Below the pieces are notes generated by a model. The model was given only the letters and a program-made list of their open reading frames with translations, searched no databases and was not told the DNA's origin. From an uncultured Candidatus Saccharibacteria bacterium (GTDB lineage: Bacteria > Patescibacteriota > Minisyncoccia > Phycocordibacterales > SBAW01): 64,000 nucleotides of DNA. This document shows, piece after piece, positions 15,717 through 19,575 of this stretch. The stretch covers positions 399,797 through 463,796 of the forward strand of contig CAZMIU010000001.1 of NCBI GenBank assembly GCA_964566795.1, given 5' to 3'. A program made the translations under genes and the position numbers. Each line of letters opens with the position of its first letter. Positions within the stretch are counted from its first letter, which is position 1.

Positions 15717-15902
15717 CTACTCGGTGATGATAAATACGTTGCCGCCCTCGCCCTCCTGTGCCGGCACCTCGTGCACCAGGTACTGCGCGTCGTCGCTCGT
15801 GTACACTGCGTCAGACAAAGACCCGTCGTAGGAGCCCGCAGGCACCTCGACTATAAAGTCCTGCCCCTCGCCCTCAGAAAAGTTTACGTCAGCGAGTGCC
15901 AT
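15717..15902 (-). CDS. Small acidic hypothetical protein (61 aa)
   Basis: It sits between the 213-aa gene and tatC with 3-4 nt gaps on either side. No homology recognised. Confidence 0.3.
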   Translation of the reverse strand: MALADVNFSEGEGQDFIVEVPAGSYDGSLSDAVYTSDDAQYLVHEVPAQEGEGGNVFIITE

Positions 15903-15905
15903 ATA

Positions 15906-16547
15906 TTATCCACGGCTTCGGGCGCCGCGCCGCGCCAGCTTTATACCACCCTTGCGCAGGGCCTCCGGGGTCGATGTTGCCTCCACCGGCACCAGAGCGG
16001 GTATCGTATCCAGACTCTCTGTTGCAGGCAAAGACTCAACGCTGGCAGCAGGTGTGGTCGAGGTGGCCTCTGTGGACGGTACAAGCGCCTCCGGTGTAGT
16101 AGACGACATAGCTGTATCTGTGGGGACAGAGAGCGGCGCCTCTTGTTGGATACTTGGCGCGGTAGCCTCGTTTGGAGCCTGCGCAGGCACATCGCGTTCT
16201 TCTTCTGTGGCGGCCTGCTCGGTGCGTATCACAGAGTCCAGCGAGTCGGGCTCGAGCGAGCCTGCATTCATTTTTGCCAGGAGCTCGTCGCTCATGCGCA
16301 CATAGGAGGCGGCCGCGTGTGTGGAATCGGGGTCAATAGCCAAAAGCGCTCTCCCTAGCTCAACAGGGTCGGAGTGTTGGTACATTACATTGCCGTATCG
16401 TACATACTGCGCCTGGTAAGCCACCACCGGGGCACCTGTGCCGGCGGCGCATTCTATAAGCGCTGTATCCTCGTAGTCCCCTGTCGCAGTAACCACCGAC
16501 AATGCCGTATCCCCTTGTACCGATTGTCCGTGCGTTATGCGTATCAT
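15906..16547 (-). CDS. Hypothetical protein: globular N-terminal ~100 aa plus a Thr/Ser/Pro/Glu-rich low-complexity tail
   Basis: Its start is 2 nt after the 803-aa gene stop; no signal peptide. Confidence 0.45.
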   Translation of the reverse strand: MIRITHGQSVQGDTALSVVTATGDYEDTALIECAAGTGAPVVAYQAQYVRYGNVMYQHSDPVELGRALLAIDPDSTHAAASYVRMSDELLAKMNAGSLEPDSLDSVIRTEQAATEEERDVPAQAPNEATAPSIQQEAPLSVPTDTAMSSTTPEALVPSTEATSTTPAASVESLPATESLDTIPALVPVEATSTPEALRKGGIKLARRGARSRG

Positions 16548-16549
16548 GG

Positions 16550-18961
16550 CTAATTCTGGGTAAGTAGTGCCCGTACTTTAATGTCGTCTGCAAGCGACGT
16601 GGGTGTGTAGCGTATGTACGTCGTCTCGTTCCCCTTGTCGGTAGTGTTGTATGAGCCCCACGCGCCGCCGTCGTTGGTCGACTTCTCCCACGTGCCGTCT
16701 GCCGATGCCGTCGTCGTGTCATCCAGCAGGAGCCCACCTGTCTCTGCGTTATACAGGCGTATGCGCAGGGTGGGCACTGTGCCTCCAAACGCAGTCGAGA
16801 ACCGCCACGCAAACCTCTTGCTTGAAATGGACGATTGCGCCACAGACGGCTGGTAGTGGCTGTCGGTGGTGTTGTCCTCATACACCACGCACACGTTGTA
16901 TACGCGGTTTGGCAGGCAAAATGTGCCAATCGTGCGGAACTCCAGAGCAAACTGGATAGCCGACGCACCGTCGACGCTGGTCAAGTCCCCTGTCTGATCA
17001 ATAAGCGTCCATGACCCGCTATTGTCGGAGATGCCCGAGGTACGGTAGTACATGCGCACCGGCTCCGTGGGCAAAGTCAGGTTGTCGGTGCCCAGATACT
17101 GCGCGGTATTAAAGTAAGCGCGCACGTATTTTTCCGCATTGGGGGTTGAGAGGGACGGCGTTACAAGCCGCTGCTTTACCGTGCCATCTGCATACGTCCA
17201 GTCAGCACCAAGCGGCACTGCATACAAGTGGTTGGTGGTAGATGCGGTACCCGCGCGTGCAATGTAGGTAAGCCCCTCTTCAGACCACACATTAAACACG
17301 CCGGCGTTTATGGTTGGGTGCGGCACCGATGCCGAGTCGGCAACCGACTGGTCCATCTGCTTGGAGTCTATGAGGAACATGTGGTCAAACGGGTCGGAGT
17401 TGGTGTTGTATTTGGTTACATAGCTGCGCACGCCGGCGGCACCTGTCGATGTCACAATAAGCCGGTCTATCTGGTCAGATATCTCAACACCCGTCAAGGC
17501 GCCCGTTACGGCATAGGTGCCTGTGCCGCCGGTTGGGACCTCCACCATGTTGTCGGACAAAAAGGTGGTCGAGCCCGTCGTGATATTGGAGACTGCCACG
17601 CGGTACACGCGCGTGGTGGTGACGAAGTAGAGCGACTTAACCCCGCTCCCGGGGCCGTGCTGCAGCGTACCCAACCTCCCGTTGTTCGTCTGCGACACGT
17701 TGCCGGTAACCGTCTGCACACCTGTGGCAAGCACAAATGCCGAGGTTGTCTTGCCGGACGATATTGAAGCAAGCGCCGTGCGGAAGTTATATTTGTATAT
17801 TGCCGGCGTTGTCGCGGCTTGGCGCTCAATTATGTAGCAGTACTGCTGGGTCCAGCTGTCTCTGTCATCAAGTGCCAGGCCCGAGGCCACGTCGTTGGTG
17901 ACAGTAGAGGCATCCGCAAGCCAGTACACCCCTTTTACTTTATCTACAGTAGTCGCGGCCGCAATGGTTGTACCGGCCGTGGCAAAGTCACCATAAGCGA
18001 GCCCTGGCGCCATATACAAGCCGCCGTTGGTAGCGGTGGCATTCGTAGTTGCCGTCAGGACGCGCAGGTCCTCTATAACATAGTCGGCGCCTGCGCCAAC
18101 CGATATGTTTGCCGCGGTACCTCCGGTACCCGCCGCAGTCACGTTTACCTGTATGGTAATCGAGGTGTCCGAGCCAACTGCATTTATATAGTACCAAGTA
18201 GATATCTGAGTTGGGTCTGTCGAGCCAAACCCGATGCGCGAGCCAATGTTGATGCGGTCGGAGCTCCAGGTGGTGTTAGAGCCTGTAACTGTTGCGCCCG
18301 ATACCCCAACGGTGCCGGTAGTGTACTTGGCATACACCACGCGCATGCCGGCAATAGTGTGGTTGGTGGCCGTGGGGTATGTGAGCGTTACAAACCCCTT
18401 CCACGTAAAGACCGACGTGCCCCGGCGGAACTCAAACATGGTTATGCGCCTGGTTGTGGCCGCGGTGGCAATGTCCGCCAAAAACACCCAGTCGATGTTG
18501 TAGTTCATGTCGATCACGTACGAGGTGCCGCCGCTCACAGTGCCAGCCGAGCTGTCTATCGTAATAGAGGTGGCGGAGCCAATGGCGGTAATGTTGTACC
18601 AATCGGTCACCGCGGCCGGGTCGGTGGTGCCAAAGCCTATGCGCGCGTTAATAGGCACGCCAGCCGACAACCAGCTGGTGCCGGAGCCCGTAACAGCTGT
18701 GCCGGAGGCGGACACTGTCCCGGTAGTGTAATACCCCGACTTGTCCGCCCAGCGCACCACGTGCGGATACACGCCAGGTACGGCGGTACTTGTCTCGTTG
18801 GGGCGGGCCACCGCAACCTTTACCGGTCCGGCAAACTTGTCGGTGTTGGTCGCCCCCGTGTACTGGCGGATAAGGTCGCCTAAAACAGTCTTGCTTGAGT
18901 CGTACGAGTCATACATAACCGTACCCCCCGTAAAAAGATGTTCTACAACTCGTTTTGCCAT
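16550..18961 (-). CDS. Large Thr/Gly/Ser-rich beta-type hypothetical protein (803 aa) with an internal ~60-aa tandem duplication; no signal peptide; fibre/tail-fibre-like composition
   Basis: The duplicated unit is YYTTGTVSASGTAVTGSGTSWLSAGVPINARIGFGTTDPAAVTDWYNITAIGSATSITI // KYTTGTVGVSGATVTGSNTTWSSDRINIGSRIGFGSTDPTQISTWYYINAVGSDTSITI. The ORFs on the opposite strand are Arg/Gly junk typical of antisense frames in high-GC DNA. Confidence 0.55.
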   Translation of the reverse strand: MAKRVVEHLFTGGTVMYDSYDSSKTVLGDLIRQYTGATNTDKFAGPVKVAVARPNETSTAVPGVYPHVVRWADKSGYYTTGTVSASGTAVTGSGTSWLSAGVPINARIGFGTTDPAAVTDWYNITAIGSATSITIDSSAGTVSGGTSYVIDMNYNIDWVFLADIATAATTRRITMFEFRRGTSVFTWKGFVTLTYPTATNHTIAGMRVVYAKYTTGTVGVSGATVTGSNTTWSSDRINIGSRIGFGSTDPTQISTWYYINAVGSDTSITIQVNVTAAGTGGTAANISVGAGADYVIEDLRVLTATTNATATNGGLYMAPGLAYGDFATAGTTIAAATTVDKVKGVYWLADASTVTNDVASGLALDDRDSWTQQYCYIIERQAATTPAIYKYNFRTALASISSGKTTSAFVLATGVQTVTGNVSQTNNGRLGTLQHGPGSGVKSLYFVTTTRVYRVAVSNITTGSTTFLSDNMVEVPTGGTGTYAVTGALTGVEISDQIDRLIVTSTGAAGVRSYVTKYNTNSDPFDHMFLIDSKQMDQSVADSASVPHPTINAGVFNVWSEEGLTYIARAGTASTTNHLYAVPLGADWTYADGTVKQRLVTPSLSTPNAEKYVRAYFNTAQYLGTDNLTLPTEPVRMYYRTSGISDNSGSWTLIDQTGDLTSVDGASAIQFALEFRTIGTFCLPNRVYNVCVVYEDNTTDSHYQPSVAQSSISSKRFAWRFSTAFGGTVPTLRIRLYNAETGGLLLDDTTTASADGTWEKSTNDGGAWGSYNTTDKGNETTYIRYTPTSLADDIKVRALLTQN

Positions 18962-18993
18962 ACTATGAATTCCCTATGAATACGTACATTTAA

Positions 18994-19575
18994 TCACACT
19001 TCCAGATAATCGATATTCACCTGCACGTTGCCGGTGCCGGAAATGACGCAGTACACGACCTCGTCCACGCCGCCCTCTACATAGTTGGGGTGGTTTTTTG
19101 TGCCGTACAGCCCTCCCAGTCGCGGAGAGACGTACTTTTCATAATCCGTGCCGCCCGACGTAAAACGGAACGAGACGCTAGTCAGGTTAGCGTCCAGCGA
19201 AAACCGTGTATTGTACACGCGCACCTTCTTGCCGCTCGCGGGCGTGTGCACGGTGCCCGAGGCGCTCAGGCTCGTTGTCTTTTTGAGGACGGCTGCACCC
19301 TCTTTTACCGACGGGTTAACGCGGGTGTTGGACGAATCTTTAACACCCACCACGCCCGTGCCGGGCGTGCTACCCATCACGAGTGCCGAAGCGCGCTTGG
19401 GGAGCGCGCTTGCAGCAACAGCGCCGACCGCTATGACCGCAAGGCTCTTGAGGAACAGGCGCTTATGCTGGTCGCCGGGCGCAGCATGAGCCGCGCCGGG
19501 TTTTAGCGCGCGCGGCAAGGGCTCCAGCACCTCGTACTCAGGCTCTGGAGGGCGTCTGTAGGGAAGAATACCCAC
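18994..19575 (-). CDS. Secreted beta-rich hypothetical protein with a Tat-like signal (..QHKRLFLKSLAVIAVGAVAASALPKRASA)
   Basis: GTG start at 19575 with the SD AAAGGGTGGG 8 nt upstream. The KRLFLK + h-region + AxA arrangement resembles the twin-arginine consensus SRRxFLK with KR in place of RR. Confidence 0.5.
   Translation of the reverse strand: MGILPYRRPPEPEYEVLEPLPRALKPGAAHAAPGDQHKRLFLKSLAVIAVGAVAASALPKRASALVMGSTPGTGVVGVKDSSNTRVNPSVKEGAAVLKKTTSLSASGTVHTPASGKKVRVYNTRFSLDANLTSVSFRFTSGGTDYEKYVSPRLGGLYGTKNHPNYVEGGVDEVVYCVISGTGNVQVNIDYLEV

Follow-up and report, generated by a model that had tools for sequence, protein, structure and literature searches.

Tat is an export route for folded proteins, and several of its substrates leave the cytoplasm in pairs: in MelC1/MelC2 (tyrosinase, Streptomyces), HybO/HybC (hydrogenase, E. 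coli) and DmsA/DmsB, a partner with a twin-arginine signal carries a signal-less partner out as a folded complex. Phage fiber proteins assemble in the cytoplasm, and endosialidase tailspikes have a trimeric stalk and a C-terminal chaperone domain. Phage capsid cement and decoration proteins and viral jelly-roll turret proteins (KHP40 gp16, Pam1 cement, STIV C381) are also among the known systems closest to the locus described here. To our knowledge, it is largely unknown how the ultra-small CPR/Patescibacteria recognize and hold on to other cells, beyond the use of type IV pili.

In this study, we describe a cassette of four genes (g193, g803, g213 and g61) followed by tatC and tatA. We lean towards the reading that a phage fiber-type module was fixed as a chromosomal operon in Paceibacteria (Parcubacteria, CPR) and is tied to a minimal TatA/TatC of its own, by which a folded complex would be exported. 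The cassette probably serves to display a folded beta-propeller protein of phage type at the cell surface, the export and the surface role both being deduced from the evidence given below.

Gene order, neighbors and selection

The window, i.e. the whole stretch of 64,000 nucleotides analysed, had been annotated as carrying four tightly linked genes upstream of tatC, and these open reading frames were found on the minus strand (Table 1), 2–32 nt apart. From g193 through g803, g213, g61 and tatC to tatA, the successive gaps are 32, 2, 3, 4 and 12 nt. The adjacent tatC and tatA both score above their curated Pfam cut-offs, as expected of a minimal TatAC translocase. None of the four upstream proteins matched Pfam, NCBIfam, PHROGs, PADLOC or PDB sequences.

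Table 1. Features of the cassette and its neighborhood, in positions of the window
Feature	Position	Strand	Remarks
g193	18994..19575	-	193 aa; Tat-signal protein with C-terminal jelly-roll domain; proposed adaptor/carrier
Tat signal peptide of g193 (residues 35-64)	19384..19473	-	family motif D-x-x-[KR]-R-x-F-L-K
KRLFLK motif of g193	19447-19464	-	inside the Tat signal peptide
Jelly-roll domain of g193 (residues 96-193)	18997..19290	-	pLDDT above 90
g803	16550..18961	-	803 aa; six-bladed beta-propeller protein of phage origin; no signal peptide
Insertion module 1 of g803 (residues 74-156)	18494..18742	-	missing from the ~710-aa phage and CPR forms
Insertion module 2 of g803 (residues 211-292)	18086..18331	-	also in phage and ~710-aa forms lacking module 1 (pairwise alignments)
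g213	15906..16547	-	213 aa; no signal peptide
g61	15717..15902	-	61 aa; small acidic protein (MALxDVNF...GGNVFIITE)
tatC	14963..15712	-	Pfam PF00902, 4.1e-37, 128.4 bits (cut-off 25.1)
tatA	14792..14950	-	Pfam PF02416, 2e-8, 33.8 bits (cut-off 21)
MG2/dockerin surface protein	11644..14817	-	Dockerin_1 1.9e-8; MG2 9.7e-6 (below Pfam cut-off); probable start MIIPP...
Two partner genes of the dockerin protein	9301..11639	-	co-conserved with the dockerin gene
288-aa partner	10773-11639	-	Sec signal and C-terminal TM
~491-aa partner	9301-10776	-	weak Ig-like match, Big_13 0.0011, below cut-off

About 60 of 80 related Patescibacteria loci, from different species and with unrelated flanks, share the order g193-g803-g213-g61-tatC-tatA, and the cassette genes are intact in every locus examined. 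Compared with relatives at saturated dS, dN is 0.12–0.16 for g803 and about 0.6 for tatC. The flanking genes include those for MPG glycosylase, TspO, an ECF sigma factor, malic enzyme, RecG, a phosphoribosyltransferase and type IV pilus components. A resident prophage was considered and rejected, the flanks holding no integrase, terminase, capsid or other hallmark genes and varying between genomes.

Not all loci share the complete arrangement. In L041 and L042, a 138-aa phage-type adaptor domain without a Tat signal precedes the propeller gene, tatC-tatA lie next door, and a g61-like gene is retained together with the propeller. L078 carries the closest tatC (76%) but a propeller of another class, and in L004 the propeller is 85% identical and the tatC 42%. 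In some lineages, one g193 is followed by three tandem propeller paralogs (about 880, 810 and 945 aa).

A dockerin/MG2 gene with its two partners is a frequent neighbor of the cassette, lying downstream or divergently upstream in most loci. The dockerin homologs bear ordinary Sec-type signals, and the RR of the copy in the window is not conserved. Of the single apparatus that had been proposed for the four genes, tatCA and the dockerin protein, the part concerning tatCA has held, given that about 60 of 80 loci keep the gene order and that the g193 family bears a conserved Tat signal; the link of the dockerin protein to the cassette is weaker than that of TatCA.

A Tat-type signal on g193 and a propeller fold in g803

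The segment DQHKRLFLKSLAVIAVGAVAASALPKRASA, which had been read as a near-perfect Tat motif with KR, is present in g193, and comparison with 120 homologs identified it as a conserved Tat-type signal and not a chance match. At the boundary of the n- and h-regions g193 reads H-K-R-L-F-L-K, in keeping with the Tat consensus S/T-R-R-x-F-L-K, and KR for RR is a tolerated natural variant of the twin-arginine motif. The family motif D-x-x-[KR]-R-x-F-L-K has KR in 87 and RR in 32 of 119 sequences, and among 121 aligned members R39 is conserved in 119, F41 in 116, L42 in 109 and K43 in 106. An h-region (SLAVIAVGAVAASAL) is followed by a basic c-region with an A-x-A motif (P-K-R-A-S-A) and then LVMG, corresponding to P-[KR]-[KR]-A-[EDSQ]-A and [LY]-V-M-G in the family; basic c-regions of Tat signals serve as "Sec-avoidance". 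The AF2 model of g193 places a helix at residues 35-57. Judged from its sequence, g193 is a predicted Tat substrate with a conserved, cleavable-looking twin-arginine signal, and it is the only protein of the module with a conserved Tat motif. A sub-threshold match of g193 to CIS_spike_tip (E 0.0048, 17.2 bits, cut-off 24.1) was the only hint of contractile injection.

The composition of g803 (T 15.4%, A 10.1%, G 9.6%, V 8.6%, S 8.6%, Y 5.2%) and an N-terminus free of any hydrophobic stretch agree with its earlier description as a Thr/Gly-rich protein without a signal peptide. It was modeled confidently (pLDDT 89.5) as a six-bladed beta-propeller, the best Foldseek matches being phage endosialidase tailspikes, with low TM-scores (about 0.25). 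A near-identical tandem duplication had also been claimed. The internal repeat is real (residues 78-136 versus 213-271, E 6e-20), but identity between the copies is 59% over 59 aa, and 135 residues separate them. They fall within two insertion modules, predicted from the model to be small beta-barrels. Module 1 is an extra copy specific to the 803-aa size class and module 2 carries a strongly conserved motif, RIGFGSTDP; in relatives of g803, the ~80-aa module occurs in one, two, three or more copies in different propeller loops. A g803-family profile (118 sequences) matched no PDB chain at E up to 1. The propeller is evenly conserved over its length, to the same high degree when phage copies are compared. 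This pattern is unlike that of typical fast-evolving receptor-binding tips and is more suggestive of an enzyme or a conserved structural component than of an adhesin.

Alignments divide g213 into a conserved N-terminal domain of ~105 aa (16233-16547) and a variable Pro/Thr/Ala/Ser-rich tail, with no Pfam or PDB match. The small g61 protein is a conserved member of the cassette.

Relatives in phages and prophages

The first-pass annotation had asked whether homologs are embedded in prophages elsewhere, and they were found both in tailed-phage contigs and in prophage-like regions. Homologs of g803 occur in 37 IMG/VR viral contigs, 41–58% identical over nearly the full length and ~711 aa long; genes for terminase, portal, capsid protein, tail tube and endolysin are present on these contigs. 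Others lie in prophage-like regions of unrelated bacteria (L049 among such regions), including one in a MAG labeled Armatimonadota, where a minor tail protein is encoded nearby. PHROG tail-fiber proteins are often encoded next to the g803 homologs. The g803 family is present in tailed phages and prophages as well as in the bacterial cassette; its ~711-aa phage members, which carry no annotation, form 418 clusters at 50% identity, and in a neighbor-joining tree the bacterial and viral copies interleave. Searches of g803 against PHROG (E up to 0.1) and by tblastn against 50,697 GenBank phage records gave no match, which counts against the phage-fiber reading.

For each of the other three proteins, at least some phages have a counterpart adjoining the propeller gene. 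A homolog of g61 (an ORF of 55–110 aa) lies at its 3' end in at least 24 viral or prophage loci. The g213 N-domain profile matches ORFs adjoining the propeller gene in L111 (6e-10), L105/106/117 (2e-5) and L085, such ORFs being found in about 6 viral loci. In phage contig L098, a g193-type jelly-roll ends a 367-aa coiled-coil protein (hmmsearch E 5e-40), encoded immediately before the propeller gene; it is the one such phage protein found, and its N-terminus is a coiled coil where bacterial g193 has the Tat signal.

Viral homologs, neighboring tail-fiber genes and these counterparts directly support the origin from a domesticated phage tail-fiber module that had earlier been offered as an alternative to an apparatus with tatCA. 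The two are not alternatives, as the evidence supports both. The label "fiber" is not proven, because the position of the propeller gene varies among phage genomes: PHROG tail-fiber proteins flank it in L086 and fiber paralogs accompany it in L092 and L111, while elsewhere it follows terminase (L105/106/117) or capsid genes (L098, L103, L107).

Proposed export of the cassette proteins and its alternatives

In the scheme we propose, a phage fiber module would have been domesticated and its adaptor, the g193 jelly-roll, would have gained a Tat signal. The signal-less g803 propeller may fold in the cytoplasm, aided by or bound to the g61 and g213 proteins, and dock onto the g193 jelly-roll, after which the folded complex would cross the membrane through the dedicated TatAC by "hitchhiking". 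Such a cassette would need Tat, since phage fiber proteins fold in the cytoplasm and Tat exports folded proteins. Outside the cell, g803 could bind or cut a surface glycan, like a phage fiber or tailspike, in contact with partner cells and possibly alongside the neighboring dockerin-bearing surface proteins. For g803, we infer the hitchhiker step from gene order, the absence of a signal and analogy; structural or chaperone roles of the cassette proteins are likewise suggested.

A tentative extension is that Paceibacteria may possess a cell-surface organelle derived from a phage fiber-tip complex, assembled in the cytoplasm with phage-type helpers and exported by Tat through a grafted signal, whose propeller recognizes or cuts the envelope of partner cells. 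The multiplied insertion modules and the one to three paralogs would then belong to the envelope-recognizing propeller, in possible cooperation with the dockerin-bearing proteins. If true, it would be a domesticated phage receptor-binding device displayed through Tat, the first of its kind, and would offer a large uncultured lineage a candidate system for host contact.

It seems rather unlikely that only g193 is a Tat substrate, with g803, g213 and g61 staying in the cytoplasm, for example to form an enzyme complex or to act on g193 ahead of its export, and with a shared cytoplasmic function behind the phage relationship. Three of the four cassette proteins lack a signal, the conservation of g803 is even and enzyme-like, and joint export would be hard in the lineages with three paralogs, which are also awkward for a single exported complex per g193. 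The propeller and g61-like gene of L041 and L042 stand beside tatCA without a Tat-signal adaptor, which also counts against our export scheme. Set against this, the jelly-roll of L098 is the C-terminal domain of a protein encoded immediately upstream of the propeller, an arrangement suggesting that the two act together; the closest propeller folds are those of extracellular phage tailspikes; and the 2–4 nt coupling and the order with tatCA are kept in about 60 loci.

The interleaving of bacterial and viral copies in the tree, the exchange of propeller genes independently of the remaining cassette (L078, L004) and the paralog number of one to three could also suit a phage-resistance device, in which the cell displays its own version of the receptor-binding or receptor-destroying phage protein, covering or eliminating the receptor and keeping related phages from adsorbing. 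We consider this improbable: the four proteins had no PADLOC match at E up to 0.1, strong conservation without diversifying change was observed, and the cassette is steady across many species between housekeeping flanks, whereas defense islands are variable. Quite doubtful is a propeller equivalent to the tail hub or nozzle of podoviruses (P22 gp10, T7 gp12), from which the cassette would build a ring-shaped surface channel and no fiber tip. Foldseek lists 9jg6_a, a 470-residue chain of the P22 tail complex that we take to be the gp10 hub (E 8e-4), and the Pam1 tail machine (1.4e-3), and the order in L098 is T7-like, with a capsid protein, a small protein, a ~715-aa protein and large proteins, one with a peptidase domain. 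An hhalign comparison of g803 with T7 gp12 gave a probability of 0.5% over 23 columns, and T7 gp12 was absent among the structural matches shown. A functionless, decaying prophage remnant lying beside tatCA by chance is hardly credible and already contradicted; phage relatives do exist and no library annotates a function, but the reading frames are intact and in the same order in about 60 species-level genomes, dN is low at saturated dS, the Tat signal is conserved on a domain whose phage version has another N-terminus, and the flanks hold no other phage genes.

The operon is conserved across many Paceibacteria and had neither annotation nor family assignment, and its g803 changes far more slowly than the adjacent TatC. 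A phage-derived, Tat-coupled module would provide an origin and a function open to testing for four families of "hypothetical" genes, and would point to what reduced genomes may keep Tat for. Tat export of a folded complex would be an added route by which bacteria reuse phage structural proteins, and the analysis also flags the previously unannotated family of ~711-aa phage propeller proteins.

Among known systems, g803 resembles the endosialidase tailspikes (K1F endoNF, PDB 3gvj; phi92, PDB 4hiz) in its modeled fold, a six-bladed beta-propeller with an inserted beta-barrel; it has no sequence similarity to endosialidases (GH58; no PDB sequence match, no Pfam match) and shows no sign of their trimeric stalk or C-terminal chaperone domain. 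The likeness to the Tat hitchhikers lies in the pairing of a signal-bearing with a signal-less partner, and melC1-melC2, like g193-g803, places a small signal-bearing gene directly upstream of a larger signal-less one. The known hitchhikers are cofactor-containing redox enzymes, whereas g193 and g803 match no cofactor-binding family, and unlike the known pairs, some cassette lineages have up to three large partners per signal protein. The phoD-tatAd-tatCd locus of Bacillus subtilis similarly combines TatA and TatC without TatB in a single-membrane bacterium, with the substrate gene adjacent; that substrate is a phosphodiesterase, while in the cassette the predicted substrate, accompanied by three co-conserved partners that lack signals, is a jelly-roll protein derived from phage. 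Tailocins/pyocins, gene transfer agents and contractile injection systems are likewise phage virion genes fixed in the chromosome under purifying selection. The cassette is a four-gene fiber-type module only, without sheath, tube, baseplate or capsid, and where tailocin-type systems depend on lysis or a dedicated machine, its proteins would be released through Tat.

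Gene order, flanks and conservation of the cassette

The ORFs listed over 12-26 kb of the window reproduce exactly the four linked genes of the first-pass annotation, here g193, g803, g213 and g61 (named by the lengths of their proteins), all on the minus strand, and they are followed by tatC, tatA and a long ORF with a terminal dockerin domain. Gaps along the six-gene cassette, from g193 to tatA, are 32, 2, 3, 4 and 12 nt.

Positions of the cassette genes and of neighboring features in the window
Feature	Position (nt)	Strand	Remarks
Type IV pilus set	2945-8629	minus	PilM, PilN-like, PilO, two PilB/PilT-type T2SSE ATPases
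Dockerin trio	9301-14817	minus	members of ~1057, 288 and ~491 aa
Dockerin gene region	11644-14919	both	several long antisense/off-frame ORFs, up to 273 aa
TatA	14792-14950	minus	exceeds Pfam cut-off
TatC	14963-15712	minus	exceeds Pfam cut-off
g61	15717-15902	minus	61 aa
g213	15906-16547	minus	213 aa
g803	16550-18961	minus	803 aa
g193	18994-19575	minus	193 aa
Methylpurine-DNA glycosylase gene	19621-20154	minus	ends 45 nt upstream of g193
tRNA-Ile	27294-27366	plus	anticodon TAT (ARAGORN)

The flanks within the window are housekeeping in character, with an MPG DNA glycosylase, TspO, tRNA-Ser, a DUF5667 protein, an ECF sigma factor, malic enzyme, GtrA and RecG upstream, and the dockerin trio, a phosphoribosyltransferase, PilM/N/O and two T2SSE ATPases downstream. 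They hold no phage hallmark genes, and the cassette in the window is not a prophage. A promoter/terminator scan found no promoter-like site between g193 and the glycosylase gene on the same strand. The type IV pilus set lies a few kilobases past the dockerin trio, and a T2SSE gene is also present at the edge of the related locus L001. The tRNA-Ile with a TAT anticodon represents an uncommon bacterial means of reading AUA.

In most loci the cassette is accompanied by the dockerin trio (an MG2/dockerin protein, a protein of ~290 aa and one of ~500 aa), which follows it on the same strand in some and lies upstream in divergent orientation in others. The MG2/dockerin protein of the window has long internal Ala/Ser/Thr/Asn-rich repeats, the 288-aa member carries a Sec signal and a C-terminal transmembrane segment, and the ~491-aa member a Sec signal. 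A by-eye likeness of these two smaller proteins to cohesin domains was unsupported by Pfam or PDB sequence searches. The antisense and off-frame ORFs in the dockerin gene almost certainly arise as artefacts from the biased and repetitive make-up of that gene.

Homologues of g803 number at least 1795 in a large protein collection; the best 120 of these share 48-100% identity, and the named ones among those 120 are all annotated as 'hypothetical' and come from Patescibacteria, Parcubacteria or 'Pacebacteria'. For g193 there are 503 homologues, likewise hypothetical Patescibacteria-type proteins, and the g213 N-domain, used as a profile query, retrieved 30 unannotated Parcubacteria proteins only. 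Scanning species-representative genomes gave 126 matches, whose informative labels are Paceibacteria-type, many of the automatic taxon labels being unreliable. At two distant homologue loci all six genes recur in unchanged order between unrelated flanks, and in a tblastn synteny table of 80 loci (77 from the species-representative scan and 3 others) the full order is present in about three quarters (~60), with tatC/tatA displaced by a few kilobases in some more. The cassette is shown to be tightly and stably coupled to tatC-tatA in evolution.

Two variants were observed among these loci. In L063, L072, L073, L074, L076 and L077 three tandem propeller paralogues (~880, 810 and 945 aa; propeller denotes the g803 protein and its homologues) are placed between g193-like and g213-like genes. 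In the low-GC, CPR-like loci L041 (6582-9359) and L042, the propeller and a g61-like gene are preceded by a 138-aa protein that lacks a Tat signal and consists of the F1 domain alone (otherwise the conserved C-terminal domain of phage fibre proteins encoded upstream of the propeller gene), and tatC-tatA adjoin divergently, followed by a ~1043-aa gene.

A predicted beta-propeller with relatives in tailed phages

As first described, the g803 protein is dominated by Thr (15.4%; Ala, Gly, Val and Ser each 8.6-10%) and lacks a signal peptide, with no N-terminal hydrophobic segment. Scans of the four proteins against Pfam, NCBIfam, PHROGs and PADLOC gave nothing above threshold (g193 had a CIS_spike_tip match below it), and PDB sequence searches with the g803, g193 and g213 profiles or with one insertion module (described below) gave nothing significant; by sequence, the propeller is outside any annotated family. 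An AF2 model built on a 118-sequence alignment (mean pLDDT 89.5, pTM 0.83, all-beta) predicts a decorated six-bladed beta-propeller, with residues ~600-803 modelled as a separate beta-sandwich, these limits being approximate and judged from secondary structure, not coordinates. Structural matches include the endosialidases of phi92 (E 3e-6) and K1F (E 6e-5), a P22 tail complex chain (E 8e-4) and the Pam1 tail machine (E 1.4e-3), all with low TM-scores (~0.25), and they therefore indicate likeness of architecture and give no evidence of family membership.

The internal duplication noticed earlier is real (residues 78-136 vs 213-271, E 6e-20), but its two copies are neither near-identical (59% identity over 59 residues) nor in tandem, lying 135 residues apart. 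Pairwise alignments show instead a module of ~80 aa, with the pattern YxTGTV..VTGxGTxW..RIGFGSTDP..WY.I......S.T, inserted at varying points of the propeller. One copy, with no extra, is found in the ~710-aa form (most phage copies and some bacterial ones), two in the ~800-aa class of this window (extra copy at residues 74-156), three in the ~886-aa form (extra after residue 355), and more, at several positions, in a 1072-aa form. A candidate module within the capsid protein of the viral contig L098 was rejected, the likeness being at motif level only and non-significant by BLASTP.

An IMG/VR scan identified 37 viral contigs with near-full-length g803 homologues (41-58% identity), ranging from 27% to 63% G+C and devoid of g193, tatC and tatA. 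These are real tailed phages: a PHROG scan of the neighboring genes found terminase large subunit, portal, protease-capsid fusion and tail tube proteins, major head protein and endolysin on L098, and, on L086, tail-fibre proteins flanking the homologue on either side as well as a sheath-like protein. The propeller gene, at ~715 aa, also occurs in prophage-like regions of MAGs labelled non-CPR, e.g. on a contig labelled Armatimonadota, where a head protein (4e-66), HNH endonucleases and a minor tail protein are encoded as well. GenBank phages searched by tblastn gave no match to the propeller family. Exhaustive HMMER searching resolved the family into 418 clusters at 50% identity, most of them 700-740 aa, and the single-module phage-type length thus dominates its diversity. 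Phage contigs L088, L093, L099 and L114 carry 2-4 propeller paralogues. Several propeller-bearing phage contigs have an unusually long terminase large subunit (1347 aa) and portal (1139 aa; L082, 14118-21613), both with internal endonuclease/HNH-type segments suggestive of inteins or homing-endonuclease insertions.

Clustering of neighboring ORFs and profile searches show that the partner genes are phage-derived too. In no fewer than 24 viral or prophage loci the propeller gene has at its 3' end a g61-homologous ORF of 55-110 aa, with a common N-terminus (MALxDI) and often GGxxFIIxE at the C-terminus, and the g213 N-domain profile matches ORFs beside the propeller in L111 (6e-10), L105/106/117 (2e-5), L085 and L080. 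On L098, the single phage counterpart of g193 found, the protein encoded directly upstream of the propeller gene has a C-terminal g193-type region (hmmsearch E 5e-40); its first 200 residues are a coiled coil without a Tat signal, and the similarity starts at the stretch after the g193 signal-peptidase site, so that g193 looks like a phage C-terminal part to which a Tat signal is joined. Two other identities were rejected: homology between the F1 domain and the g193 jelly-roll (hhalign empty), and g193 as a podovirus adaptor, since g193 is a jelly-roll and the adaptor fold is a different one. Taken together, a phage origin of the operon, offered at first as an alternative (a domesticated phage tail-fibre module), is well supported.

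Comparison with the nearest relatives was made by dN alone because dS is saturated, and by this measure (0.12-0.16 for g803, ~0.3 for g193, ~0.6 for tatC) the propeller gene is by far the most conserved of the operon. Its conservation is uniform lengthwise and only slightly lower against the phage copies. In the bacterial and the phage set alike, 59 positions reach at least 95% conservation, 7 of them Arg and 5 Asp/Glu; examples of residues that do not vary in either set are R53, E56, R172, R242, D340, R451, E474, D499, R640 and R686. The closest relative in tatC (76%), tatA (86%) and g193 (81%), L078, has an 886-aa-class propeller that is only ~69% identical, while L004 combines a propeller of 85% identity with a tatC of 42% identity; the cassette is a mosaic, and its propeller gene seems to be swapped separately from the other genes. 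Bacterial and viral copies interleave in a neighbour-joining tree, which is indicative only, with short internal branches and no support values. The mosaic relatives, this interleaving and the three-paralogue lineages suggest that the propeller gene has been exchanged repeatedly, with phages as plausible vehicles.

The Tat signal and a proposed route to the cell surface

The Tat-like KR motif first noticed on the 193-aa protein is a family trait, D-x-x-[KR]-R-x-F-L-K in 121 aligned members (position 38, K in 87 and R in 32; position 39, R in 119; position 41, F in 116; position 42, L in 109; position 43, K in 106), followed by ~17 hydrophobic residues, a basic c-region with A-x-A (P-[KR]-[KR]-A-x-A) and a conserved LVMG. 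By all sequence criteria g193 is a Tat substrate, and both its signal and the TatA/TatC pair qualify as members of their classes. Within the 64-kb window a Tat-like motif precedes a hydrophobic stretch in g193 and the dockerin protein only; the latter was rejected as a second substrate, its RRNRRFLL not being conserved and its homologues having Sec-type signals. A conserved Tat signal is shown on one member of the module only.

We propose that the propeller, perhaps with g61 and g213, folds in the cytoplasm like phage fibre proteins and binds the g193 jelly-roll, and that the dedicated TatAC would export the folded complex, which after cleavage at A-S-A, expected to leave Leu65 as the N-terminus of g193, would reside at the cell surface and might bind or cut glycan, as endosialidase-like tailspikes do. 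In this scheme g61 and g213 would be assembly helpers left behind, or subunits; g213 is without a signal of its own, and its Pro/Thr-rich tail would suit a wall-spanning tether. The contact between g193 and g803 and the export of the latter are putative; the export mechanism and the surface function are plausible.

Several points weigh against such a carrier role. In L041/L042 an F1-type 138-aa adaptor without a Tat signal has tatC-tatA adjacent, and the lineages with three propellers per g193 would have a very large cargo to move. The uniform high conservation of the propeller is unlike that of receptor-binding tips and is more in keeping with an enzyme or a conserved structural component, and the place of its gene in phage genomes is inconstant. 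On these grounds four rival readings are retained: that g193 alone is exported, which we consider unlikely; that the module serves as a phage-exclusion decoy, which is improbable; a hub or nozzle-type ring, to which we give slightly less credence again; and a dead remnant, which we barely keep. A podovirus nozzle identity for g803 was rejected when hhalign against T7 gp12 came back empty, with no profile similarity.

Full-text literature searches found no description of the cassette; a freshwater CPR survey merely noted the occurrence of TatA and TatC in Paceibacteria (PMC9166423). What is plausibly new is the pairing of domesticated phage structural genes with a dedicated TatAC that would export a folded complex, in a conserved operon, hitherto without annotation, from a major uncultured lineage. 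To the endosialidase tailspikes g803 is similar in architecture only. The arrangement of g193 and g803 has a precedent in MelC1/MelC2, where a small signal-bearing gene lies upstream of a signal-less partner, and phoD-tatAdCd of B. subtilis, a substrate gene beside its own TatAC, is a precedent for a substrate with a dedicated translocase.
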